A stretch of DNA of 12,536 nucleotides from a virus. Positions 1 through 12,536 of this stretch are shown in pieces. Position 1 is the first letter of the stretch; each line of letters starts with the position of its first letter. The stretch lies in UHGV virus genome UHGV-1658101; one strand, written 5' to 3'. The notes beneath the pieces were generated by a model. It was not told the DNA's origin. It saw only the letters and a program-made list of their open reading frames with translations, and ran no database searches. The translations under genes and the position numbers were made by a program.

Positions 1-41
1 TGAAGTCGCAAAAATCGGGGTCAAAAAGCACATCTGTTACA

Positions 42-596
42 TCAAGAGTCGGCATTTTTATCCCTCACAACATGGGTAATGGCTCTGCGATATTGCCCGG
101 TGTCGATTAGCGGTTTCACCAGATCGGTTCCGGGGGACTCGCCAGCAGCGCGTCGGGCAAGCTCCGCTTTCGCCCCTTTACGCCCTCGACGCGCGCGGGC
201 TTCAACGGTGCTATCAGCAAGCGGTGTAAAGCCGGTAATAGTCATGTAACGCCTGACGCCATTAGCGGCCAGCGTTCCGGCACGGTTGAGCGCTCTTTCC
301 GCACCCGCCGCATTACCATCAAGCGCAGCCTGCGCCGCTGCTTTGAGCTGCGGCACTGTCTGTTCTTCTACCGATTTAACGCCGGGGACCAGGTGAGGTC
401 GTGGCGGGATGTTTTGCGCCGGTGAGCCGTATTCGTTGAGGTAACCGATCCCGGCATTACCAAACGGAACATCCTCACGCTCGCTGTCTGCTTCCGGGAT
501 ACCCACCAGCACTTCTTTTTTACTGATGGATTTGAGCGCATCCAGAATGGCCTGAGCGTTATCCACCCTCGTTGTTACACCGCTTTTGAAGCTCAT
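42..596 (-). CDS. Phage virion structural protein, function unassigned (possibly head completion or neck)
   Basis: 184-aa ORF with ATG at 596-594 overlapping the upstream stop as ATGA; Ala/Arg-rich; sits at the distal end of the head gene block. Product inferred from position only. Confidence 0.5.
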
Positions 597-1000
597 AGCT
601 GGCGACCGCCTGCGCCAAACATCGTGATCAACTGATAAAATTCAGCGCCATATCGGGTGTTATTCCAGAAACCTGCATCAGGATTCAGCGTCGCGCTGGT
701 GTCATAGCTGACGCTTACCTTATCCACGGACTTTGAGGACTGAACACCATTGGTTGAACCGCCCGGCCCGCCAGCCAGCATCGCCCGGCTGTCTGCCGCC
801 CAGAGCGTCATGTAGTGTGCAACGAACAATCCGGCAAAGTACGGAAACAACTTTTTGCCGGTGACGTTTTCGCTCAGCAGTTCATCGGCCAGATTCAGAC
901 GAAACTGGATTTGCGCTTCGGGATATTTGGCAGGGTCAGCAAACTGCGGGAAGTCGCGGCGAAAATCACTTACCGCTGGCAGACTTTGATTCTTTGGCAT
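593..1000 (-). CDS. Small phage head-tail structural protein (DUF4054-like by position and size)
   Basis: 135-aa ORF; ATG at 1000 preceded by GAGGT about 6 nt upstream; lies two genes downstream of the major capsid gene as in Mu-F/DUF2184-type head modules. Confidence 0.55.
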
Positions 1001-1187
1001 TTTTTACCTCGTTACGCGCGTCAGTGGCTTTGCCAACGGATACTTCCGCGTGCGCACGAGTGAACCAGTGCGTGGCAACGTCTTCCTCCACTGCATGACG
1101 GCCTTTAACAAACTCGCGCCGAGAACCGTCGGGAAGCGTGAGCACAAACGGGGTATGTACGTGTATTACTGCATTATTTTTTGCCAT
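966..1187 (-). CDS. Small hypothetical phage protein
   Basis: 73-aa ORF; ATG at 1187 preceded by AAGGA; overlaps the next gene by 35 nt; begins 42 nt after the capsid gene stop. Confidence 0.45.
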
Positions 1188-1202
1188 CGGGTCATCCTTA
1201 AT

Positions 1203-1219
1203 GGCCCCGCAAGGGGGCC
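1203..1219 (-). other. GC-rich stem-loop immediately downstream of the major capsid gene
   Basis: Minus strand GGCCCC-CTTGC-GGGGCC (6-bp G/C stem, 5-nt loop) between the capsid stop at 1229 and the next RBS; no U-tract, so not a classical intrinsic terminator. Confidence 0.35.
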
Positions 1220-1228
1220 ATATGGCTG

Positions 1229-2170
1229 TTAAATGCCATCAACGTACGAAATGGTTTCTTTGTACACTGGCTCGACTGCACCCAGCTTGCCGTAGTAAGT
1301 GACGATCTGATACAGACCGCGATACTGCACCGGCACACTCTGAAGCGGAACCAGCGGGTAGCGGACGTATTTTTTATCGTTGGTGTACGCAACCATGCGA
1401 TCCTTATTCCCCACACCACGGCCTTTCAGCCATTTAACCGCGCGGATATTCAGCGGAATACCGTTCTGGTGATAGCTGATGGTGTTGGTCTGAAGGTACG
1501 TCAACAGGGACTGGTTACCAGCAGATGAAACGATGATGCTGGACAACAGAGCAAACTGCTCAGGTGGGATCAGCAAATCACTCGGAACCACAGAGTAACC
1601 GGAAGCGGCCCACGCATCAGACAGCACCTGGTTAATGCTTGCGCGGATTTCGTCCGGTGTTGAGGTTGCCCACGTTTTGGCAGCGTTGTTGACAGGAACA
1701 CCGTTCAGGGTAACAAGGCCTTTCAGGTTTAATGCGGAATCGCCAACATACACCTGTTCATCGTTATCCATCTGCCATTTCAGTTGCATCCCGTCATACT
1801 TCTGCGTATCAATCGGGCGTCCGACCTGCTGAGCAGCCTGCAATTCTATGACCGTCCAGCCAAGTTCCATCCCCCACAGGTTCAGCGGGTTACCGGATTT
1901 GCCGATATCCACGTTTACGCCAGCAATAGCAGTTGAGTCTTTGCCTACCCAGTTTTTGCCATTCGGATTTGCACCAGTACCCGCAGCGGCGAAGCTGGTA
2001 TTCGTCCAGCTGGAAATGTCATCTGCGATAGAGACATCTTCACGCAGTTGGATATCGCGGGTCCAGGTGTACCCCACCAGTGGCAGGTTCAGCGTCTGGT
2101 CTAGTCGTTCCAGCTCCCCGATGAGAAAGGCACCAGAGCTGTCAACGGTTGCCTGATCAAAAGTAATCAT
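1229..2170 (-). CDS. Major capsid protein (HK97-fold, DUF2184-like)
   Basis: 313-aa ORF; ATG at 2170 with AAGGA RBS; size and position after the scaffold/protease and decoration-like genes fit a major head subunit. Confidence 0.7.
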   Translation of the reverse strand: MITFDQATVDSSGAFLIGELERLDQTLNLPLVGYTWTRDIQLREDVSIADDISSWTNTSFAAAGTGANPNGKNWVGKDSTAIAGVNVDIGKSGNPLNLWGMELGWTVIELQAAQQVGRPIDTQKYDGMQLKWQMDNDEQVYVGDSALNLKGLVTLNGVPVNNAAKTWATSTPDEIRASINQVLSDAWAASGYSVVPSDLLIPPEQFALLSSIIVSSAGNQSLLTYLQTNTISYHQNGIPLNIRAVKWLKGRGVGNKDRMVAYTNDKKYVRYPLVPLQSVPVQYRGLYQIVTYYGKLGAVEPVYKETISYVDGI

Positions 2171-2181
2171 TCGTCTGTTCC

Positions 2182-2688
2182 TTAAATCTTCCAGGAAATT
2201 TCTGCATTGCCGTCAGCATCACCGGCACCTGTGAATTCAGCGTTGGTCAGCACCACATTTTTGCCACTGACTGACGTGGACATGAATCCACCCAGCGGCA
2301 CTTTGATGGATTCATCAGTGGAGACGACAACGTATACCGGGTCGCCTTTTTTGATGGTGCTGGCATCAAAATCAGAACCGAGATTAACGGTCACGTAGCC
2401 ACGCTTCATGGCGTCGCCAGGGAAGTTCTTGCCACTCCCCACCTGGCGAACCATGTCCGGCTGCGAAGTGGTCGGATAAGGGCGCACATAGATCCCCTTC
2501 ACCTTGTCTGCGGTATCACCATCTGCCAGCGGCACGAAAAAACCGTCATCATCGTATTTACCAGCCAGCCCATAGGCAGCAAAGGCGTTATCGGATTTAA
2601 GGACCACCGGTTCGACGGTTAAGTCCTGCGGACGAGAGACAGCCCCGGCAATGCCAACAGGCATCCGGTACAGAAATACATTATTCAT
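2182..2688 (-). CDS. Putative capsid decoration or auxiliary head structural protein
   Basis: 168-aa ORF; ATG at 2688 with AAGGG RBS; Gly/Val/Asp-rich and beta-strand-like; lies between the scaffold-like gene and the capsid gene. Confidence 0.5.
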   Translation of the reverse strand: MNNVFLYRMPVGIAGAVSRPQDLTVEPVVLKSDNAFAAYGLAGKYDDDGFFVPLADGDTADKVKGIYVRPYPTTSQPDMVRQVGSGKNFPGDAMKRGYVTVNLGSDFDASTIKKGDPVYVVVSTDESIKVPLGGFMSTSVSGKNVVLTNAEFTGAGDADGNAEISWKI

Positions 2689-2691
2689 TTT

Positions 2692-3912
2692 TTACCCTTT
2701 ACGGTTTGCCCAGAATTCAGCGTTTTGTTTGTTCAGGGAAGCGATACTGGTCATGCCCATATTTGGGCGCTGTGCATCGCCGGTGGTGGCGCGGGTGTTT
2801 CGCCCTTTGGCAATCTCAGACACGGCATTAAACGCCATGTTGACCGATTGTTTCGGTAATTTGCGGATATCCGCATCACCGACGATCTGGCGAACCAGCG
2901 TTTTATCTGCGGAAGCCAGAACCTCGCGTTTGAACGCGGTCGGTTTCATCTTACGGCTCAGATCGATACCCGGAACGATAACTTCGGCACGCCAGGCTGA
3001 GTCACCAGTAATCGTGGTTTCCTCTTCATCGTCCTCGCCGTCACCGGTCGGATTATCGTCAGGCTTATTGTCGTTATCGCCCGTCGCATTTCCTTCCAGC
3101 TTAGCCAGCAGGGCTTTCAGTAATGTTTTGAGGTCATCATCACTGTCGCCGGTTGGACCTCCACCCATCTCTGGTGCTTTGTCCGGTAGTGGTTGCTGCG
3201 GGGACAGGTTGATGTTGAGATTAACGCCCTGCGGCAAATCCCCCTCATCTCCTGTAACCGATGCGGGAGCCGACTCCACCAGTTCGTTCATGGTGTCGGC
3301 ATCTCCTGTCTTGATGGCTGCACGCATGCGGGTCCACCAGTTTTTCTTTTGATTTGCCATTGTGTCTCTGTCTCCAATTGCACAACGATTTCCGGCTCTG
3401 CCTTTAGGGACAAGAGCCACATGGTTTCCGGTAATATCGACCTGCTCGGCTTTACCTGGCTCGGTCTGCTCGTACTCCGCGTCATAGCCACACGACACTT
3501 CACGCAGGCCATCTTCGATAAGCTGAATGGCGCTTTCGTCTTTGACGATAAGGTCAGCCAGCATCAAATCAGACAGCTCACCCGTCCCGCGCCGCACATT
3601 CTGAAGATGCCCGACAGCAAGCTCTTTCCAGTTCTCGGGATTTACCAGCCGCACATTCCCGTTTTCATCTTCAGGATGCAGGATCGTGATGCTCATCCCT
3701 TCGAATGAGGCGAGCGTGGCCGGATGGAATACCTGCTCAGGAGAACGCGTTACGACTATCTCACCGAGCTTGTCTGGTTTGAGGTTTGGCAGATCGGCAG
3801 CGCCGTAGAGCTGCTTACCAGTTCGACCTATCGGCACGTCTTTGCACAGCAGCGAGCCGTCAGCCAGCTGATAGCGGGTTTCCCCCAGCCGGGTATTGAA
3901 AAAATATTTCAT
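2692..3912 (-). CDS. Putative prohead protease/scaffolding protein (DUF2213-like)
   Basis: 406-aa ORF; ATG at 3912; N-terminal globular domain of about 180 aa, a strongly acidic Gly/Asp/Glu linker (DSDDDL...GDGEDDEEETT) and a helical Lys/Ala-rich C-terminus, matching Mu gpI-type protease-scaffold architecture. Confidence 0.6.
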   Translation of the reverse strand: MKYFFNTRLGETRYQLADGSLLCKDVPIGRTGKQLYGAADLPNLKPDKLGEIVVTRSPEQVFHPATLASFEGMSITILHPEDENGNVRLVNPENWKELAVGHLQNVRRGTGELSDLMLADLIVKDESAIQLIEDGLREVSCGYDAEYEQTEPGKAEQVDITGNHVALVPKGRAGNRCAIGDRDTMANQKKNWWTRMRAAIKTGDADTMNELVESAPASVTGDEGDLPQGVNLNINLSPQQPLPDKAPEMGGGPTGDSDDDLKTLLKALLAKLEGNATGDNDNKPDDNPTGDGEDDEEETTITGDSAWRAEVIVPGIDLSRKMKPTAFKREVLASADKTLVRQIVGDADIRKLPKQSVNMAFNAVSEIAKGRNTRATTGDAQRPNMGMTSIASLNKQNAEFWANRKG

Positions 3913-3926
3913 GTGTTACCTGCGAT

Positions 3927-4700
3927 TCAGGCGGGATAAGAATGGGAGGTGGGAAAAACGATTTCTTTATAACAGCGACAATTCGGGAGCTCGCCAGCGT
4001 GACCGGTCATGCCATCAAGCGTTGGAGGTTTGCCCCATTCGACAAACTTACCTTCCATCTCCCGATGAGAATGCCGGACGTCGCCATCTTCGGCTGTTCG
4101 CCAGATATAACCATTCGAGCCGATTGACAGCGCACGCGCCTGATCCAGCGCGCCGGTTGCACGTCCAAGCTCGGTACGGGCGATAAGGTTCGCTCGTGAG
4201 CGTGACACGTCACCGGACGCAGCTATCTCTTTCGCGAATGGCTCAGCGCGGCCACCAGTCACAACAGCCTCGATGGCTTTGTTCTGAATGTCATATACCC
4301 GATCGGCGGCCTCAAGAGGCAGCGATTTGATGTACTTAATTTGCTCGATCACGATGGATTTCATCACCTGGCCTACCGGGGCGCGGTCGACCATGTTGCG
4401 CAGCTCTGCGCTGATGTTCCGGCTGTGCTGACGCCACTGCTTTTCATTCTGGCGTGCAATGTCGGCGGTAAAGTTCTCAGCAACCTTCGTCGCCCAGGGG
4501 GTGATGATTTCGCTGTAGCGCTCCAGCGCATCCATTATTTCGGTGACACTGTCATTTGAACCATCGTAGCGACCATTTACGATATCCCCGACCGCCCGCG
4601 CTATCTGCCGTAGGCTCGTTCGATATCGGATTTCCGCCTGGCGACTCTGGCGGTTTGTCGCCAAGTTCGCCGATGCCTGGCGGCGCTTCGTCTTCGGCAT
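3927..4700 (-). CDS. Head morphogenesis protein (Mu F / SPP1 gp7 family)
   Basis: 257-aa ORF directly downstream of the portal; ATG at 4700 with GAGGA 8 nt upstream; overlaps the portal 3' end by 149 nt. An alternative ATG at 4535 would remove the overlap but lacks an RBS. Confidence 0.7.
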   Translation of the reverse strand: MPKTKRRQASANLATNRQSRQAEIRYRTSLRQIARAVGDIVNGRYDGSNDSVTEIMDALERYSEIITPWATKVAENFTADIARQNEKQWRQHSRNISAELRNMVDRAPVGQVMKSIVIEQIKYIKSLPLEAADRVYDIQNKAIEAVVTGGRAEPFAKEIAASGDVSRSRANLIARTELGRATGALDQARALSIGSNGYIWRTAEDGDVRHSHREMEGKFVEWGKPPTLDGMTGHAGELPNCRCYKEIVFPTSHSYPA

Positions 4701-6018
4701 TCTCTATGTCCTCGTCGGTAATGGATGCCCCGATGCCGGTTACGTCAGAATTTTCGCGCAAATCGGTCATAGCGGCTTTCAGTGTCATCAGACCATCACC
4801 CAGCGCCGTACTGATTGCGTTGGTGGTGTTTAACGCCACCGTTGAGCGATCGACATCAGACATTTGCCAGAGCGGGTTAAACTCAAACGTGAAATCGTCC
4901 GGCAGCGGCTTGCCAAGTTCCGAACGATGCATGATGTCCAGTATCCGACGCACCGGAAGACGTAAACGTCTCTCCTGCAGCGAGCTTACCCGATCGTAAT
5001 AGTTGGCAAGGTCTGCATCACCGGTAGAAAATCCCTTCGGGGACTGTCCGAACAACCGCACCAGTGGGATACCAACAGCGCCACTAATCTGTTCTGCAAA
5101 CTGCGAAAGGATGTCATCCAGACCACTGAAGCTGTACTGATGGGTTTCAAACTTATCCCGCGAGTCCATGAGCGTCATGCCTTCATTACTCTGGAACTGT
5201 CGAATCAGGTCGATATTCTTCAGCAACGCTTCATACGCAGGACCACCAAGTGCGATAAGCTCACGTAGCTTCTCCACGCTGTAGGTACGCAAATGCGCTT
5301 TGTAGACCAGCTGCGCCGCGCCGACAGTGGCGCTGTCGAACGCAGTAAGCCGATCCCAGATACGCTCTACAACCGACATTCCCCATTCGTTTTCGGTCAT
5401 CTTCTGCTGGAATGGCAGCGTCACCCCGTCGAAGCGAATCAGGCGGCTGTGATGGATGCGCCAGGCCGGGATGCCCGTTGCAGTGGTCACCACGTCGTAA
5501 AACTCAGGTTTACCCAGGTCCGGCCCCATCTCTTTAATGCGGCGGGTCAGCACAGGGTTAATCATCCAGCGGTCGAGCGGGAGAATGCCCTTAAACTTGC
5601 CTTCTCCAATGGTTTCGAGCCGCAACGGGGTCATTGGTGCCTGCCCCTCAATCATGATGAAGCCAACCGCGCCGCCGTAGAGACGCGACCATTTCATCAC
5701 GTCGTTCAGCGCATCCCAGATCTGCAACTCATCCAGCTGCGCTTCCAGGGTGCCACGGTCTTTGGCGTCAATCTCCGAAGTGATGCGAATGCCTTTCCGG
5801 GTCATATCGTCCGGGATAGCGTCGACCGCTTCGCCGATGATCCAGGACGAACGATAGGACCATTCCACCAGCATGCGGTTGCGGCTGGTGAAGTTAGCCC
5901 GGTAGGTCGATGCTGAGTGCTGGTTAGGTGTCTGCATCCCTACGCGGGCGATAAAATTCTCATAACCATCAGCTGTGGCCTGCGCAGTTCGCCGCAGGGC
6001 TTGTTTGTTTCGTGCCAT
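4552..6018 (-). CDS. Phage portal protein
   Basis: 488-aa ORF immediately after the large terminase (TGATG start/stop overlap at 6018); size and position typical of a portal; low-complexity Gly/Pro/Glu C-terminal tail. Confidence 0.8.
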   Translation of the reverse strand: MARNKQALRRTAQATADGYENFIARVGMQTPNQHSASTYRANFTSRNRMLVEWSYRSSWIIGEAVDAIPDDMTRKGIRITSEIDAKDRGTLEAQLDELQIWDALNDVMKWSRLYGGAVGFIMIEGQAPMTPLRLETIGEGKFKGILPLDRWMINPVLTRRIKEMGPDLGKPEFYDVVTTATGIPAWRIHHSRLIRFDGVTLPFQQKMTENEWGMSVVERIWDRLTAFDSATVGAAQLVYKAHLRTYSVEKLRELIALGGPAYEALLKNIDLIRQFQSNEGMTLMDSRDKFETHQYSFSGLDDILSQFAEQISGAVGIPLVRLFGQSPKGFSTGDADLANYYDRVSSLQERRLRLPVRRILDIMHRSELGKPLPDDFTFEFNPLWQMSDVDRSTVALNTTNAISTALGDGLMTLKAAMTDLRENSDVTGIGASITDEDIENAEDEAPPGIGELGDKPPESPGGNPISNEPTADSAGGRGYRKWSLRWFK

Positions 6019-7640
6019 CAGGCCTGTCTCCCTAGCAACTCCCAGATGTTCAGGGCTGAATTCATTGGGGCATAGTTGATCATCACCGAGTCGGCAAGAT
6101 TTGGCGACCGGGTCCCATCAGGCTGTTTATCAATAACGATTTTTCCCACACCATTAATGGAATAGGTCGGCTGCGAAAGCTCGATGATGAGTTTATCTTT
6201 GAGTGCCATGCTACTGCTGATTGAGATGATTTCGTCCGGGTTGTAAGCCATACCTTCAACCACGGCGCGCCAGGTATTCTGAAAAAGTTTACGTAACCGC
6301 CACCAGCTTTGTGCTTTGGCGTTAGCGAAGAAGTCCTTGTTCAGACGTGCGGCTTGCCCGTTGTCCCCGCGAACAGCTTCATCATCCGGATCAAATACCG
6401 CGCCACTACCTCGAAACGGTGTGGCGAGTATTGACGGTCGACGCGCAGCGTTACGCAGTTCGTTGATAGCGCGTGCATCGCCGCGAACGCCAGCGCCCAG
6501 CCCGTCCTCGTCAAAGCGAAACTCTTCGAGGTTATCCTGTTCGCAAAAGCCGAAAACCTTCTCGACGGACTGATAAATGTCGCTGCCCACACCGGACCAT
6601 TCCCGCACATTTTCCAGGAGGAAGCCATGACGGGTGGAAAAGGCATTTTTGTCCCTGCCTTCGTCGGCGACATCCATCGCGCCAAGTCGTTTGCCTGTTG
6701 GCTGGATACCCAGTTTGATATGCGCATCAACGGCAGCCTGTACCCATTCGGATGGAATCAGGACGCCTTCCGCTGATGCGCTGTAGTTCAGATCAAGTTC
6801 CTGTGCCACCACCACCGGATTATCGATTTTCTCGCATTCCCTGCGATACCACTCTTCATCCTTGCGAGGATCATCCCGCCAGTGGAATGTGAATACCGGT
6901 ATCTTCCCGCCATGACGCTTCTGAGCGAACGGGTTCGCCATGCCGTTAACTGAACTCAGGTCGATACGGCAACGCGTCGTTTGTGACAACGCCGCATCAA
7001 TCAGCAGAGGACGCTGAAGGAATGCAGCCTCATCAACCAGATAAAGCGTGGTACGGTCACCACGACCAATATTATCGCCAGCCTCGCCTTTGATAACGGC
7101 ACCAGTTTCAGGAAACTCAACACGCATATATGGCGCGTGCTTCTTCTCGCTCCACGAACCGCGAAACTCTACAGGCAGTGTTTCCACGAACTTGCGCGCC
7201 TTCCAGAACAATGCTTTCGGGTCACCGGTGCTGTCGACGTATTCCTCTTTACGGGAGCCGAAACCGATAACCATTTCTTTGTTGAAGAGACAAAGCGAGC
7301 AGGCCAGTCCGATCGCGGTCCAACTGAGCCCCATTTCACGGGATTTTTCGGTAATACCATTCTCCCGATTGCCCCAGCGTTCCATAATCCAGTGGATCCA
7401 CTCCTCCTGCTTAGGGAAGAGTAAAAACGGAATGGTCACCGGCAGGCCATAATCAATATTACGCGGGTCCGTTGTCATGCCCCAGTCGATGATGAACTGA
7501 GCCGGGTTGGTTCGGTAAAACTGTTTTAGTGCTGGCAATATTTCAGGGTTCTGGCGAATGCGCTGTAGGCGTTCCATCCGCCATTCAAAAACCATCTGGT
7601 AATCAGGATGTTTAAAATCGAAGGGAAATGGTAACGGCAT
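6018..7640 (-). CDS. Terminase large subunit
   Basis: 540-aa ORF; candidate P-loop [11 protein letters not shown], Walker [13 protein letters not shown]-terminal acidic nuclease-like region ([10 protein letters not shown]); follows the small subunit with a 2-nt gap. Confidence 0.9.
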
Positions 7641-7642
7641 AC

Positions 7643-8197
7643 TTAGCCCATCATTTTTTTATACGCTTCTGCAGCCTGCTCCGGCGTTAAGTTGGTAATT
7701 TCTGTTCTGACTGGGCCTCCATCAGCGCCAGTCACTTCATTTTTGACGTTGTCTTTAAACGCCTGAACAGAAACATGACGCCCAAGCAACTCAAGGTTTT
7801 TAACCTTATCAGGCCATTTGATTTTCTTCAGAAGTGCGGCGCTATCTGCTGATGCCATCTCGACGACATCCATTCCTGATAGCGTTGTACGCCACACCTT
7901 AGGCCAGTCTTTAATCGGCTTCAGTTCGCCATTGGCAAGCAGGATATCCAGCACGTCCATCTGATCGATTTCAGTCAGCCGTCGCAATACATAGGCAGCG
8001 TCTATACCTACCTCTTCATTGCGTTCAGCCTTTAGCTCAGCAATGCGATCTGCTATGTCAGGTTTTGACAGGTTCTCGCTACCAGTGGCGCGAGCAGTTT
8101 TCTCGCTGTAACCCGCCCTGATAGCTGCCTGAGTGGCGTTTAAATCTTTTAAATATTCCCGGCAGAACAGTTCCTGCTTAGGTGTGAGCTGTTTCAA
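7643..8197 (-). CDS. Terminase small subunit (P27 family), probable TTG start
   Basis: Conserved N-terminus [28 protein letters not shown]. The ORF-track start at 8248 is a TTG inside the HNH gene; an in-frame TTG at 8197 with GGGGG 6 nt upstream sits 1 nt after the HNH stop and gives MKQLTPKQ..., with no in-frame ATG nearby. Confidence 0.75.
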
Positions 8198-8198
8198 A

Positions 8199-8696
8199 TC
8201 ACACCCCCGAAACGTTGCTCCAATTTCTATGATTAACGATGTCAGCAATCATGGTAGTGGATACGCCATATCTCTTTGCTAAAGACCTAAGCCCATTACC
8301 TACACTCCCGCGCACATACTCGCGGCGAATGCAGATGACATCGCACTCTTTTAATTTCGCCATTCCGTTCTTTTCACCTGAACGGTCAGGGTATGAGTTT
8401 CTGCCTCGCCTTGACCTGTCACGATTATTGTCAGCGACAGTACCTATAATCAGATGGTCAGGATTCACGCATGATGGATTATCGCATTTATGCCTAACAA
8501 CCAGGTCCTTGATGCTATCTAGCGAAATTCCGTTAGCTTCGCAGTATGCGATTCGATGTGCGTAGTGCGGCTTTCGTGAAATGTGCTTCTGCCCATACCC
8601 TCGCTTATTTATGTAGCCGGTATAAATCACACACTCTCCGACATACACATCATCCGGATGGGAAAACAGCTCTTGTTTGTCTGTGAGCTTTGCCAT
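8199..8696 (-). CDS. HNH homing-type endonuclease, terminase-associated
   Basis: 165-aa ORF; ATG at 8696 with GGAG RBS; motif HKCDNPSCVNPDHLIIGTVADNNRDR (HNH_3-like) and N-terminal YTGYINKRGYG...HYAHRIAY; immediately upstream of TerS. Confidence 0.85.
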   Translation of the reverse strand: MAKLTDKQELFSHPDDVYVGECVIYTGYINKRGYGQKHISRKPHYAHRIAYCEANGISLDSIKDLVVRHKCDNPSCVNPDHLIIGTVADNNRDRSRRGRNSYPDRSGEKNGMAKLKECDVICIRREYVRGSVGNGLRSLAKRYGVSTTMIADIVNHRNWSNVSGV

Positions 8697-8720
8697 TGTT
8701 GGCTCCGTTTATCCGTTAAA

Positions 8721-8742
8721 AGGGATATCAGTTAAGTTATCC
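8721..8742 (-). other. Weak hairpin upstream of the HNH gene
   Basis: GGGATA-N10-TATCCC inverted repeat followed on the minus strand by TTTTAACGG; AT-rich stem, so weak as a terminator. Confidence 0.2.
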
Positions 8743-9050
8743 CGTGTAGGGTATAAGCCATTGTCGAGACCACTCATTGAATGGCCTCTGCAATAACCGA
8801 TGTCTTTCCATCAGTCCGCCACCACAAAGAATCTTTTTTGCCATAAGGCTGGAGGTTCATCTTTCAGTGGCTGCCAGTGTTATTTCCCCACTTACTGGCT
8901 TGGGTTGTTTCGCTGTACTGCCGTTAACTGGTGGCGCACAGATTTAGTTAAATCCGTTCTCGCATGATCCAGCTTTTACATACCTGGATTGTGAGGGATG
9001 TAAATCACGGTTTCATTATCAAGCCCACCAGTAGATGGGCTTTGGAATGG

Positions 9051-9569
9051 TCACTTTGGCAGTCCGGGGATCGATATTTGCGCCTGCTGCTCAATCCTTT
9101 CGATTCTTGCTATGAGTTGAGGTTTTTTGATCCTGCCCCAGCGGTTCAGCAAGCGTCCTGACATACTGGCAACATCCTTTTCCTTCATGAACTCCAGCAT
9201 TAACTCGTTGTGCTCTCTTTGGTATGAGTGAGCCACCTCCATCAGCCTGTCACGCATCCAATTAAATGCTCTGATAAACGCCTCTTTGATGGCGGCAGCT
9301 TTTTTGCCGGTAAACGACATGATGATGTACATCGCACCGTCTTTGGAAATTTCATATTCAACATACTGATTACCCTTGTGTTCATAGGTAACCCGCGAAA
9401 AGTTGCTGGTTAGAAATTCATCCGAACAGTCTAGCTTTTCGATTTTCTGAATGATGTGGTGATGCTGCTTGTCGAAGTAAGCTGCTACCTTGCGGGAGGT
9501 TGTGATCACGCGATCACCAGAAACAACCACCATGTCCCGGAAATCGAGATTAGCCAATTGATGATTCAT
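9051..9569 (-). CDS. rha: Rha-family phage regulatory protein
   Basis: Sequence from MNHQLANLDFRDMVVVSGDRVITTSRKVAAYFDKQHHHIIQKIEKL...YIIMSFTGKKAAAIKEAFIRAFNWM matches the Phage_pRha pattern; ATG at 9569 with AAGG RBS. The track's 253-aa ORF starts at a TTG at 9812 and its extra 81 residues run across an intrinsic terminator, so I treat them as non-coding. Confidence 0.8.
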   Translation of the reverse strand: MNHQLANLDFRDMVVVSGDRVITTSRKVAAYFDKQHHHIIQKIEKLDCSDEFLTSNFSRVTYEHKGNQYVEYEISKDGAMYIIMSFTGKKAAAIKEAFIRAFNWMRDRLMEVAHSYQREHNELMLEFMKEKDVASMSGRLLNRWGRIKKPQLIARIERIEQQAQISIPGLPK

Positions 9570-9611
9570 AGCGTCTTTACCTTTTAGAAAGTGAGCCTGT
9601 CTCACAGAAAA

Positions 9612-9640
9612 GCCGCCCGAGAGAGGTCGCCACCTATAAC
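9612..9640 (-). other. Lambda cosN-like motif (candidate cohesive-end site)
   Basis: Minus strand GTTATAGGTGGCGACCTCTCTCGGGCGGCTTTTC resembles lambda cos (GTTACGGGGCGGCGACCTCGCGGGTTTTCGC, quoted from memory): shared GGCGACCTC, CGGG and TTTTC, at the equivalent position downstream of Rz. Confidence 0.3.
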
Positions 9641-9705
9641 GGCATTTCTCAGGCTCGCTTACTGAAAGGCTCTCGTTAATATGCGCGTGAGATGCGCTGT
9701 GAAAT

Positions 9706-9736
9706 TCAGATATAAAAAGCCCCGCGAATGCGAGGC
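9706..9736 (-). terminator. Rho-independent terminator between the lysis cassette and rha
   Basis: Minus-strand RNA GCCUCGC-AUUC-GCGGGGC (7-bp stem with one G-U pair) followed by UUUUUAUAUCUG; 175 nt downstream of the Rz stop. Confidence 0.55.
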
Positions 9737-9911
9737 TAAATCCTGGTATTTGTAATGAACTGGCTCTTATCTCAACGCAGCCCCTTACTGCGCGCCAGAT
9801 GCTCAATATCAAGCATCAGCAATGAGATGTTTAATCTGGATTTACTCCAGAAGTGATCACCACCCTGTCTACAGAGCCAGATGTGAAGGATGATGAGTAA
9901 AATTATCGCTA

Positions 9912-10349
9912 TCATCGAAGGCATTGCGTCCTGATGTATTCCTGCAGGTAGTTAACCTGCGCGGTTATCCTGTCGATTCCACTTCGGAGACGGTAATAAT
10001 TGAGTTCAGCATCTGCTGTAAGTCTTGGGCTTTCTCCATCGCCCATGCTGCTGGCTCCGGTCGTTGACTTTGCACAGGTGGCGGCGACTTGCAGGCGCTT
10101 ACGACCAGCAGAAACATCAGCACGGAGACTTTCGATAGTCGCGTTAGCATCAGCAAGCTCCTTTGTGTATCTGGCGTCGAGTTCTGCTACATCACGTTGA
10201 CGCTTCTGCATGTCAGCGATTGTGGATGTGGCTTTATCTCGCTGCTCTTTGTAGGCGATGGCGTTATCACGGTAATGATTAACAGACCATAACAGGCAGA
10301 CGATGATGCAGATAACCAGAGCGGAGATAATCGCGGTGACTCTGCTCAT
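9912..10349 (-). CDS. Rz: Rz inner-membrane spanin (i-spanin)
   Basis: 145-aa ORF; N-terminal TM segment [16 protein letters not shown] then coiled-coil-like region; N-terminus resembles lambda Rz while the remainder diverges; start overlaps the R stop. Confidence 0.85.
9965..10150 (-). CDS. Rz1: Rz1 outer-membrane lipoprotein spanin (o-spanin), embedded in Rz in the +1 frame
   Basis: ORF wholly inside Rz; first ATG at 10150 (track start 10156 is TTG); signal peptide with lipobox VSAC then Pro-rich mature region ([13 protein letters not shown]). Confidence 0.7.
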
Positions 10350-10822
10350 ACCTCAATCTCTCTGACCGTTCCGCCCGCTTCTTTGAATTTTGCAATCAGG
10401 CTATCAGCCTTATGCTCGAACTGACCATAACCAGCGCCCGGAAGTGAAGCCCAGATATTGCTGCAACGGTCAATTGCCTGACGAATATCACCGCGATCAA
10501 TCATCGGTAAAGCGCCACGTTCTTTAATCTGTTGCAGTGCCACAGCGTCCTGGCTTTTCGGAGAGAAGTCTTTCAGGCCAAGTTGCTTGCGGTAGGCATC
10601 CCACCAACGGGAAAGAAGCTGGTAACGTCCGGCGGCTGTTGATTTGAGTTTTGGGTTTAGCGTGACAAGTTTGCGAGGGTGATCGGAGTAATCAGTGAAT
10701 AGCTCTCCGCCTACAATGACGTCATAACCATGATTTCTGGTTTTCTGACGTCCGTTATCAGTTCCCTCTGACCACGCCAGCATATCGAGGAACGCCTTAC
10801 GTTGATTATTGATTTCCACCAT
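10346..10822 (-). CDS. R: Endolysin R (lambda-type lytic transglycosylase)
   Basis: 158-aa protein [39 protein letters not shown]... is essentially lambda R as recalled; overlaps the S 3' end by 17 nt. Confidence 0.95.
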
Positions 10823-11129
10823 CTTCTACTCCGGCTTTTTTAGCAGCGAAGCGTTTGATAAGCGAACCAATCGAGTCAGTACCGATGTAGCCGATAAACA
10901 CGCTCGTTATATAAGCGAGATTGCTACTTAGTCCGGCGAAGTCGAGAAGGTCACGAATGAACCAGGCGATAATGGCGCACATCGTTGCGTCGATTACTGT
11001 TTTTGTAAACGCACCGCCATTATATCTGCCGCGAAGGTACGCCATTGCAAACGCAAGGATTGCCCCGATGCCTTGTTCCTTTGCCGCGAGAATGGCGGCT
11101 AACAGGTCATTTTTTTCTGGCATCTTCAT
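10806..11129 (-). CDS. S: Holin S (class I, lambda-type) with dual-start motif
   Basis: 107-aa protein [39 protein letters not shown]... is near-identical to lambda S as recalled; Met1-Lys2-Met3 gives the S107 antiholin and S105 holin starts. Confidence 0.95.
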
Positions 11130-11523
11130 GTCTTACCCCCAATAAGGGGATTTGCTCTATTTAATTAGGAATAAGGTCGATTACTGATAGAACAAATCCA
11201 GGCTACTGTGTTTAGTAATCAGATTTGTTCGTGACCGATATGCACGGGCAAAGCGGCATGAGGTTGTTAGCGCAGCCTCTTGCCACCCGCTTTCACGAAG
11301 GTCATGTGTAGAAGGCCGCAGCGTAACTATCACTGATGAATTCAGGATAGCCAGTGGCTACGGCTCAGTTTGGGTTGTGCTGTTGCTGGGCGGCGATGAC
11401 GCCTGTACGCATTTGGTGATCCGGTTCTGCTTCCGGCATTCGCTTAATTCAGCACAACGGAAAGAGCACTCGGTGCATTTAAGACAAGCTCCATAAGGGA
11501 GAATGCTCTTACCTGTTACACAG

Positions 11524-11586
11524 ATATAAAAAATCCCGAAACCGTTATGCAGGCTCTAACTATTGCCTGCGAACTGTTTCGGGATT
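11524..11586 (-). terminator. tR' late-operon terminator (3' end of the 194-nt 6S leader RNA)
   Basis: Minus strand AATCCCGAAAC ... GTTTCGGGATT (11-bp stem, structured loop with GCAGG/CCTGC) then TTTTATATCTG; matches lambda tR' as recalled. Confidence 0.8.
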
Positions 11587-11720
11587 GCATTTTACAGACC
11601 TCTCAGCCTGCGATGGTTGGAGTTCCAGACGATACGTCGAAGTGACCAACTAGGCGGAATCGGTAGTAAGCGCCGCCTCTTTTCATCTCACTACCACAAC
11701 GAGCGAATTAACCCATCGTT

Positions 11721-11755
11721 GGGTCAAATTTACCCAAGTTTATTCAAAAAGTCAA
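11721..11755 (-). promoter_or_regulatory. Late promoter pR' with the Q-utilisation (qut) region
   Basis: Minus strand TTGACT (-35, fwd 11750-11755), 17-bp spacer, TAAATT (-10, fwd 11727-11732), about 29 nt downstream of the Q stop; predicted start near 11720, 194 nt from the tR' U-tract. Confidence 0.75.
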
Positions 11756-11797
11756 TATCATGCCGTTAATATGTTGCCATCCGTGGCAATCATGCTG

Positions 11798-12421
11798 CTA
11801 ACGTGTGACCGCATTCAAAATGTTGTCTGCGATTGACTCTTCCTTGTGGCATTGCACCACCAGAGCGTCATACAGCGGCTTAACAGTGCGTGACCAGGTG
11901 GGTTGGGTAAGGTTTGGGATTAGCATCGTTACAGCGCGATATGCAGCGCTTGCTGGCATCCTTGAATAGCCGACACCTTTGCATCTTCCGCACTCTTTCT
12001 CAACAACTCTCCCCCACTGCTCTGTTTTTGCTATATCAACCACACGGCCTGTACCGTGGCAATCTCTGCATCTTGCCCCCGGCGTCGCGGCACTACGGCA
12101 ATAATCCGCATAAGCGAATGTTGCGAGCACTTGCAGTACCTTTGCCTTAGTATTTCCTTCGAGCTTTGCCACACCACGGTATTTCCCCGATACCTTGTGT
12201 GCAAATTGCATCAGATAGTTGATAGCCTTTTGTTTGTCGTTCTGGCTGAGTTCGTGCTTACCACAGAATGCAGCCATACCGAATCCGGCTTGTGATTGCG
12301 CCATCCCCATAGCAGCCATCACATCAGTACCGGAAAGAGAGTCAGAAGCCGTAGCCCGTGGTGAGTCGCTCATCATCGGGCTTTTTGGCGAATGAAATTT
12401 AGCTACGCTTTCGAGTCTCAT
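11798..12421 (-). CDS. Q: Late-gene antiterminator Q
   Basis: 207-aa protein MRLESVAKFHSPKSPMMSDSPRATASDSL... with zinc-binding CRDCHGTGR...CGRCKGVGY; essentially lambda Q as recalled. Confidence 0.95.
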   Translation of the reverse strand: MRLESVAKFHSPKSPMMSDSPRATASDSLSGTDVMAAMGMAQSQAGFGMAAFCGKHELSQNDKQKAINYLMQFAHKVSGKYRGVAKLEGNTKAKVLQVLATFAYADYCRSAATPGARCRDCHGTGRVVDIAKTEQWGRVVEKECGRCKGVGYSRMPASAAYRAVTMLIPNLTQPTWSRTVKPLYDALVVQCHKEESIADNILNAVTR

Positions 12422-12536
12422 CGTCTTCCCCTCTTGCCCTGTTTGACCATCAGGACGCCGTTAACTATTGCGTGACGCTCGCCTTTGCTGTCTCGGTTGT
12501 ACTTGAGCACTGTTCCTCTTGCGCAGGAAAGCATCC
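12418..12536 (-). CDS. ninH: NinH-like protein, 3' end only (truncated by window edge)
   Basis: Open frame from the window edge to a TGA overlapping the Q start (ATGA); C-terminus ...CARGTVLKYNRDSKGERHAIVNGVLMVKQGKRGRR resembles lambda NinH (...CSRGTVRKY..DGK.HAIVNDVLMV...) as recalled. Confidence 0.55.
   Translation of the reverse strand, partial: MLSCARGTVLKYNRDSKGERHAIVNGVLMVKQGKRGRR

Follow-up and report, generated by a model that had tools for sequence, protein, structure and literature searches.

A mosaic late-operon start in a lambdoid Escherichia coli prophage with a putative homing endonuclease gene in the small terminase gene

Introduction

The 12,536-nt stretch of DNA analysed here (the window), taken from the virus genome UHGV-1658101, places a late antiterminator and lysis cassette of phage lambda type next to terminase and head genes of another kind, and an HNH endonuclease gene stands immediately before the small terminase gene terS. 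Two questions are raised by this locus: where the pieces of different origin are joined, and what an HNH gene is doing at the entrance of the head module. In our judgement it is probable that the late operon of a lambdoid Escherichia coli prophage belonging to the SEN34 (Brunovirus)-like myovirus group begins here, that the locus is composed of at least five pieces, and that the HNH gene is a homing endonuclease in terS. SEN34 is a lambdoid phage that combines lambda-like early genes with a myovirus virion (PMC5261728). An earlier interpretation made from the letters of the window (the sequence-only reading) had implied one junction between a lambda-type cassette and a foreign packaging and head module; at least four were found.

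The coding strand is the minus strand for every gene in the window. Gene identities were assigned by searching the window proteins against Pfam, NCBIfam (E<=0.01) and PHROGs, and the distribution of the locus in E. coli was surveyed in a set of 5,426 complete genomes.

Results and Discussion

An HNH gene at the 5' end of terS

The prophages of TUM2820 and ET650 carry the same rha gene, non-coding stretch, terS and large terminase gene (TerL) as the window and no HNH gene, and they provide empty sites whose flanks are 96-100% identical to the window. The empty-site terS opens with ATGGCAAAGCTCACAGACAAACAAGAGCTGTTTGCCCGTGAG; codon by codon it reads ATG GCA AAG CTC ACA GAC AAA CAA GAG CTG TTT GCC CGT GAG TAC CTG AAA GAT, which encodes MAKLTDKQELFAREYLKD; the terS of the sister prophages without the HNH gene begins MAKLTDKQELFAREYL, and the 5' end of the allele free of the homing endonuclease gene is ATGGCAAAGCTCACAGACAAACAAGAGCTGTTTGCCCGTGAGTACCTG. 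The window keeps this match through CTGTTT and then passes in frame into the HNH open reading frame (ORF). The 11 codons with which terS originally began now serve as codons 1-11 of the HNH ORF (8664-8696), HNH-specific sequence runs from 8663 onward, and the translation begins MAKLTDKQELF-SHPDD. The terS gene restarts 1 base past the HNH stop codon, now as TTG AAA CAG CTC ACA CCT AAG CAG GAA CTG TTC TGC CGG GAA TAT TTA AAA GAT over the corresponding segment. This second start is a re-coded version of the first: compared with the ET650 terS, 18 of the first 48 bases are changed versus 8 of the 507 in the remainder (Fisher p=2.5e-15), and the changes in the re-coded segment (hereafter the tag) fall mostly at third codon positions. 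The HNH gene is a separate mobile insertion that belongs to neither parental module.

The same cassette is found well outside the window. Yersinia enterocolitica, Xenorhabdus miraniensis and metagenomes are the sources of the closest relatives of the HNH protein, which are 69-81% identical to it; every close relative ends 1 nt before a Terminase_2 terS and, the Xenorhabdus copy excepted, begins MA(K)LTDKQE. Their backgrounds contain Terminase_3 with Phage_portal_3, Terminase_6C with DUF4055, or others, and the upstream DNA is unrelated. Between most of the cassettes compared the tag keeps 98-100% identity, even where the HNH coding sequence is 70% identical, and it drops to 92% (locus L018) and 79% (Xenorhabdus, locus L017) in the most divergent ones; downstream of it the terS identity decays to 30-45%. 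Within the cassette the tag is the most conserved piece, more so than the nuclease gene itself. Each of the 12 IMG/VR contigs that carry the tag has HNH sequence immediately upstream of it, an intact ORF in 10 and a truncated remnant in 2, and in seven E. coli genomes of the EJN001 type only the last 69 HNH bases and the tag are left, joined directly to Rz. A single site that is occupied, empty or decayed in different genomes, and that recurs in unrelated backgrounds, is the trace that a homing endonuclease gene would be expected to leave. The HNH 3' remnants seen before an intact re-coded terS are 28 codons or 69 bases long (at about 356 in L029, at about 2742 in L025 and at 3001-3069 in L008), and another decay product is a protein (P0039) in which a KilA-N/ORF11CD3 protein is fused to the last 54 HNH residues.

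The position of the gene also invites a quite different explanation, in which the HNH protein is a terminase packaging cofactor of the HK97 gp74 type, known from cos phages, and belongs to the head and packaging module without being selfish. Packaging-associated HNH genes, as Kala et al. reportedly described in 2014, are placed directly upstream of terS; the window gene, likewise a member of the HNH superfamily, lies immediately before terS, and all of its close relatives are directly upstream of a terS as well. However, TUM2820 and ET650 have near-identical terS and TerL genes and lack the HNH gene, as do phages vB_EcoM-606R2 and SEN34, so that it is dispensable in sister phages, and most carriers of the head module do without it (14 genomes with the HNH gene against 50 with at least 80% of the window). 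Where the HNH gene decays to remnants, terS stays intact. The gene lies within terS as an insertion, is found alongside three different combinations of TerL and portal, and belongs to Pfam families (HNH_3 and zf-His_Me_endon) other than that of the gp74-type genes, its distant relatives being inter-gene endonucleases of lytic phages. The neighbouring TerL is not HK97-like; it resembles Sf6 gp2 and the 8dkr terminase, both of which we take to be headful packagers. The HNH gene does not have the character of a conserved, required terminase partner, and a cofactor role is considered very improbable.

The HNH protein matches Pfam HNH_3 (1.5e-9) and zf-His_Me_endon (5.1e-7). Its catalytic His and Asn residues (H69, N78, H81 and N90) are invariant across 40 HNH relatives, and the ORF is full length compared with these relatives. 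The next-closest proteins outside the terS-linked lineage are at most 47% identical, and several of them are annotated as homing endonucleases; the distant relatives are found in lytic, mostly T7-like phages, placed between genes for replication or for the virion. An AF2 model of the protein has a pLDDT of 87, with the terS-derived residues 1-7 disordered, and a PDB sequence search with the protein returned no match. Taken with the insertion pattern, these features allow the HNH gene to be best read as a free-standing homing endonuclease that would target terS: it encodes a nuclease domain, it is present or absent at one site, it occupies the same site in unrelated backgrounds, and the occupied target is altered.

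We propose that the HNH gene has invaded terS after codon 12 and that its ORF would use the ribosome-binding site (RBS), the start codon and the first 11 codons of terS for its own translation. The predicted target of the enzyme is the conserved 5' end of an unoccupied terS, and repair of a cut there from the occupied allele would copy the cassette in. The insertion would disrupt the target, and the re-coded tag would rebuild an intact terS without recreating the site; by inference, the tag is no longer a cleavage site. Because terS opens the head module, repair of such a cut would carry flanking DNA along in the conversion and could in this way be one driver of the recurrent joint at the start of terS in lambdoid phages.

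Free-standing homing endonucleases of phages include the seg and mob enzymes of T4, mobE, which splits nrdA in phage Aeh1, and F-CphI, which lies next to psbA. The window cassette resembles them in having a nuclease gene by an essential gene, a polymorphism at one site, an altered occupied target and decayed copies. Unlike them, its ORF continues in frame from the first 11 terS codons and relies on the start signals of the gene it has invaded, and that gene is not split but rebuilt by a re-coded 5' duplicate contained in the cassette. The concept of the free-standing homing endonuclease, with a nuclease gene beside or inside an essential gene, is established (PMC10448857; PMC2790892), and homing endonuclease genes lie at genetic-exchange boundaries and beside essential genes (PMC10448857). 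Literature searches gave no description of a terS-targeting homing endonuclease lineage or of this cassette layout, which is not proof of absence. That the window contains an undescribed intron-less homing layout specific for the 5' end of Terminase_2 terS genes, with a captured RBS, start codon and 11 codons and a 16-codon replacement presumably immune to cleavage, and that co-conversion could be one driver of the module joint at the terS start, is put forward tentatively, our doubt slightly outweighing our belief.

The presumed target of the enzyme is widespread. The unoccupied target, which comprises the first 38 bases of a terS free of the homing endonuclease gene (compare window 8660-8696), is found exactly in at least 120 viral contigs of IMG/VR, in which the upstream DNA is unrelated (21-31% column identity) and the downstream terS has an identity of about 50%; a conserved 38-base island at the start of the head module could serve as both homing target and recombination linker. 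The intact cassette with its HNH-terS joint is present in 14 of the 5,426 complete E. coli genomes. In a collection of species-representative genomes, an exact-pattern scan did not find the re-coded tag; searching these genomes at the protein level brought up no member of the close lineage, only distantly related HNH_3 proteins (no more than 41% identical across the full domain) and, through the MAKLTDKQ pattern, terS N-termini. Members of the close HNH lineage came from three other sources, namely the protein database, IMG/VR and the set of complete E. coli genomes.

A target of this kind might also suit an enzyme kept mainly as a weapon, which would cut the common terS allele of competing lambdoid phages, whether co-resident or super-infecting, and block their packaging, its spread by gene conversion being a by-product. 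The presumed target is common, terS is essential to a competitor, and encounters are likely because E. coli genomes hold a median of 2 and a maximum of 12 places that match the window. Sequence data cannot separate a weapon from homing, but insertion at the same site in unrelated backgrounds is the footprint of gene conversion into cut targets, and the low occupancy (14/5,426) together with the decayed copies fits a selfish element better than a selected weapon. A weapon as the main function seems unlikely to us, and we retain the homing endonuclease as the preferred reading of the HNH gene.

The lambda-type late switch and lysis cassette

The upstream part of the window was compared with phage lambda. 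One blastn alignment spans window positions 12431-10101 and lambda positions 43875-46235, and the match is correct and far beyond chance. At the nucleotide level Q matches lambda at 97.9%, S at 99.1%, R at 96.2% and Rz, over its aligned part, at 78%; the proteins are 99.0% (Q), 98.1% (S), 98.7% (R), 57% (Rz) and 38% (Rz1) identical to their lambda counterparts. The claim of the sequence-only reading that the Q, pR', tR', S and R segment is near-identical to lambda is borne out, with proteins at 98-99% and with the pR' hexamers and the tR' hairpin conserved. In 100-base windows the identity stays at 92-100% from Q to the start of Rz, with the exception of one patch of about 40 bases 3' of tR' (~11470-11505), where it is 72-86%. 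This patch is replaced relative to phage Dewey as well as lambda, and both of its flanks are 95-100% identical.

With 205 of 207 residues identical, Q falls into the lambda specificity class, for which an identity of at least about 92% serves as a proxy (PMC2629481). Both the promoter scan and the alignment give the same pR' hexamers as in lambda, and three substitutions lie between the -35 hexamer and the start region, i.e. in the qut region. The arms of the tR' hairpin and its T-run are identical to those of lambda; the hairpin folds with -31.2 kcal/mol (z=-5.45) and is followed by U6. Translation of S begins MKMPEK, and the lysis cassette comprises a class I holin with a dual start, a transglycosylase of the lambda R type and an Rz1 embedded in Rz. 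The window shares with lambda the dual start of S and the Rz1-in-Rz layout along with the Q, S and R proteins, the pR' hexamers and the tR' hairpin, and differs from it in the patch 3' of tR', in Rz past about codon 30 and in the whole of Rz1, which are of another type. The bor, cos, Nu1 and A of lambda are missing from the window; as had been predicted, their place downstream of Rz is taken by rha, the HNH gene, and a terS and a head module unlike those of lambda.

On the left, similarity to lambda has its edge at the start of Q (window 12422-12431; lambda 43875-43886), where the lambda RefSeq record has a misc_recomb feature annotated at 43884/43885. Upstream of Q the window has a P22-type ninH, versus ninI in lambda. 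In the prophage of PSS-04 (locus L002), genes for tRNA-Asn and tRNA-Thr lie between Q and S (16014-16169), at the place where the window (11130-11797) has lambda orf-64-like DNA and no tRNA; the Q-S spacer is therefore a variable mini-module.

The break in Rz and the Q-to-rha block

The identity to lambda falls within Rz from about 98% to 61-78% and stops at 10101. The density of mismatches rises sharply past ~10257 (Rz codon 31), and tblastx found no lambda similarity anywhere in the window below 10101. A breakpoint within or just after Rz had been anticipated, and the identity plot along the lambda alignment confirms a step change, located inside Rz (~10257-10291). Of the first 39 residues of Rz, 35 are those of lambda, and the protein has a 7-residue deletion versus lambda; Rz is a chimera of a lambda-type N-terminal membrane anchor and a non-lambda periplasmic domain. 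Both spanins had been described as lambda-like at the N-terminus only. This holds for Rz and fails for Rz1, which is not lambda-like (38% identity).

With the P22-like phage Gally the window shares the Q-to-rha block (8688-12536) at 97-98% identity, and the two are near-identical across the Rz breakpoint. Because Gally shares the sequence on both sides of it, the Rz break is an old joint that was already present in P22-like phages; it is the mere edge of lambda similarity, and the Q-to-rha region is a standard block of P22-like phages. Similar blocks are found in HK620, Sf101, IME10, epsilon34 and others. Lambda-type Q and qut occur among P22-like phages, epsilon34 being one that carries them, and lysis cassettes are shuffled among these phages (PMC2629481). 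A joint inside Rz would keep the C-terminal, periplasmic domain of Rz together with Rz1, its binding partner. The P22-like (Lederbergvirus) phages such as Gally have in common with the window the chimeric Rz, the Rz1, the small ORF that follows, rha and the non-coding stretch up to the next start codon. They differ in what comes after the block: a DUF2560 gene and P22-type podovirus head genes, in contrast to the HNH gene, the Terminase_2 terS and the SEN34-type head of the window.

The small ORF at 9772-9924 is present in Gally, and the PSS-04 and TUM2820 prophages do not align with the window over 9738-9918; the ORF is a variable mini-module after Rz. A terminator-like hairpin next to it has 8 pairs, of which 6 are G-C, and a tail (TTTTATATCT) that is the same as the tR' tail. 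Its edge at position 9737, between the small ORF and rha, is where the similarity to the PSS-04 and TUM2820 prophages resumes.

The lysis/head joint, terS and the head module

In P22-like phages and prophages the non-coding stretch precedes the DUF2560 gene. Its last 113 bases, which lie before the HNH start codon in the window, occur in more than 2,500 E. coli genomes with another first gene in that place. Gally agrees with the window through the RBS and ATGGCA and diverges right after. The functional joint with the head module is the start codon of the first head-module gene, near 8688-8697, and the shared upstream arm could support homologous exchange at this point.

A further joint is found inside terS at ~7831. 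The last 63 terS codons (7643-7831) are 96-100% identical to vB_EcoM-606R2, and the final ~13 of them are also common to SEN34; the N-terminal two-thirds of terS are a different allele, whose best match in an isolated phage is 76% at the DNA level. Small terminases consist of an N-terminal DNA-recognition part and a C-terminal part that binds TerL. The chimeric terS would fit a swap of the DNA-recognition domain in which the TerL-binding end was kept, and a joint at this place would leave the C-terminus with its own TerL. The designation of this terS as a P27-type small terminase is not sustained: only Pfam Terminase_2 was matched (E=4.8e-41), with no NCBIfam model at E<=0.01, and the P27 family presumably corresponds to TIGR01558 and Pfam Terminase_4.

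Escherichia phage vB_EcoM-606R2 matches the head block (1-7831) at 95.5% identity, and Salmonella phage SEN34 matches window positions 1-7681 at 84%. SEN34 (Brunovirus) and the phages vB_EcoM-606R2, 689R2, 611R5 and 683R1 share with the window the gene order TerL, DUF1073 portal, Mu-F protein, DUF2213 protein, cement protein and major capsid protein; in them Q, the lysis genes and the N-terminal region of terS are different, and the HNH gene is lacking. Synteny and nucleotide similarity alike make this a SEN34/Brunovirus-like head module. The nuclease domain of TerL matches 8dkr (2.8e-33) and 4idh (2e-27) in the PDB sequence search. The description of the region as Mu-F-type head genes has to be narrowed to a single protein with a Mu-F/SPP1 gp7 domain, whose gene spans 3927-4700 or, with the start taken over from the PSS-04 annotation, 3927-4535, the portal being of the Phage_portal_3 family and TerL being Sf6 gp2/8dkr-like. 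Further head genes encode a DUF2213 protein, a cement protein and a PF09950 capsid protein, as identified with Pfam, NCBIfam and PHROGs.

Distribution and reality of the mosaic

The PSS-04 prophage, which adjoins a tRNA-Thr gene, covers 97% of the window at 96.9% identity, and 50 of the 5,426 complete E. coli genomes cover at least 80% of it. The mosaic is an established prophage lineage and not a unique event; it is textbook lambdoid mosaicism, and the arrangement is not new. No isolated phage is uniformly similar to the whole window, as a single-source origin had been expected to show, and the data exclude a single phage or lineage that would match the window evenly and be lambda-like throughout. 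Within its tail/baseplate region, which the window does not cover, the PSS-04 prophage encodes a YafO-family toxin and has a second small gene (35706-36122 of L002).

Abrupt switches of similarity partner are also what an artefact would give, be it a chimeric assembly or two prophages stitched together, and nothing else speaks for one. The same gene order and the same joints are present in complete E. coli chromosomes (PSS-04 and the 50 genomes mentioned above), the HNH-terS joint recurs in 14 genomes and in independent IMG/VR contigs, and the GC content along the window shows only a gentle shift, from 0.46-0.51 to 0.52-0.58. The chance that the joints are artefactual is regarded as negligible.

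On the present evidence the window would be composed as follows. The first piece (12431 to ~10260) would bring the lambda-type Q, pR'/qut, tR', S, R and the membrane anchor of Rz; the second (~10260 to 8697) would contain the remainder of Rz, Rz1, the small ORF, rha and the non-coding stretch, as in P22-like phages. The third (8663-8150) would be the HNH homing-endonuclease cassette, the fourth (8150-7832) a particular allele of the terS N-terminal region, and the fifth (7831-1) the terS C-terminus, TerL, portal and head genes of SEN34/606R2 type. The features of the window are listed in Table 1. NCBIfam had no model for the HNH protein, terS or TerL, and Pfam none for R or TerL; Rfam at the gathering threshold gave no match in the window, and ARAGORN found no tRNA in it.

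Table 1. Features of the window, in the order of transcription, with the basis of each assignment
Feature	Position	Strand	Basis
ninH 3' end (P22-type nin region)	12418-12536	-	Alignment to PSS-04 prophage ninH/Q annotation and Gally ninH; abuts Q
Late antiterminator Q, lambda-type, 207 aa	11798-12421	-	Pfam Antiterm E=1.5e-57; 205/207 residues as in lambda Q
pR' late promoter (TTGACT-17-TAAATT) and qut region	11727-11755	-	Promoter scan; alignment to lambda 44507-45189
tR' terminator hairpin and U-run, end of 6S transcript	11528-11585	-	Lambda alignment; fold
Holin S, MKM dual start (S107/S105)	10806-11129	-	Pfam Phage_holin_3_1; 105/107 residues as in lambda S
Endolysin R, lambda transglycosylase type	10346-10822	-	156/158 residues as in lambda R
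i-spanin Rz, chimeric	9912-10349	-	Pfam Phage_lysis; lambda comparison
Breakpoint of high lambda identity, Rz codons ~22-31	10257-10291	.	Sliding identity and mismatch positions
o-spanin Rz1, +1 frame inside Rz	9965-10150	-	Pfam Rz1 E=2.4e-20; lipobox VVSAC
Small ORF, 50 aa, after Rz	9772-9924	-	phrog_11822 E=2e-37
Terminator-like hairpin, tail TTTTATATCT, upstream of rha	9718-9737	-	Terminator scan
rha, Rha-family regulator, 172 aa	9051-9569	-	Pfam Phage_pRha and ORF11CD3; TIGR02681
Conserved non-coding stretch, 354 bases, ending in RBS (GGAG) and start codon	8697-9050	-	Comparison with Gally and E. coli genomes
HNH (His-Me finger) endonuclease ORF, 165 aa	8199-8696	-	Pfam HNH_3 and zf-His_Me_endon; empty-site comparison
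Re-coded terS 5' end, TTG start, 16 codons	8150-8197	-	Comparison with allele lacking the homing endonuclease gene
Small terminase terS, 184 aa	7643-8197	-	Pfam Terminase_2 (PF03592) E=4.8e-41
Large terminase TerL	6018-7640	-	phrog_2; PDB sequence matches
Portal, Phage_portal_3/DUF1073	4552-6018	-	Pfam E=3e-105
Head-morphogenesis protein, Mu-F/SPP1 gp7 domain	3927-4535	-	Pfam Phage_Mu_F 5.1e-18; TIGR01641; start per PSS-04 PGAP call

Late expression of the mosaic and points against the proposed model

It is proposed that Q would load onto RNA polymerase at pR'/qut, which would then read through tR' and later terminators. Read-through of this kind would bring the downstream genes, all in the same orientation, under lambda-type late control, which would be why the modules are interchangeable and why a foreign head module works. 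Promoter prediction gave no promoter-like site in 8600-9950, i.e. between Rz and terS.

Several points weigh against the model as a whole. Read-through from pR' over rha, the HNH gene and terS is a prediction, and the terminator-like hairpin at 9718-9737 is in its path. The nuclease activity, the cut site and the immunity of the tag are likewise all predicted. A Foldseek search of the PDB with the AF2 model of the HNH protein gave weak matches only, to I-PpoI and the Smad MH1 domain (E>0.2), which fit a His-Me finger but cannot serve as evidence. At the 5' end of the HNH ORF the first 37 target bases persist, so for the occupied allele to be immune the recognition site must span the insertion point or lie downstream of it. 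The conservation of the tag could instead reflect translational coupling or a requirement of TerS. For the mosaic itself, the direction of the ancient module exchanges cannot be deduced.

Conclusions

The window adds one member to a known lineage in which late control and lysis of lambda/P22 type are set on a SEN34-type myovirus chassis, and it offers a clean, base-resolved example of where joints are placed: inside Rz, at a shared RBS and start codon, and inside terS. The HNH cassette, an apparently undescribed form of intron-less homing, is a modest gain and the part most worth the attention of specialists. Occupied, empty and decayed alleles are all present in sequenced E. coli strains and make up a directly testable system, which could show how a homing endonuclease enters a gene essential for packaging and leaves it intact, and whether recombination hot spots at the lysis/head boundary arise in part through such elements.

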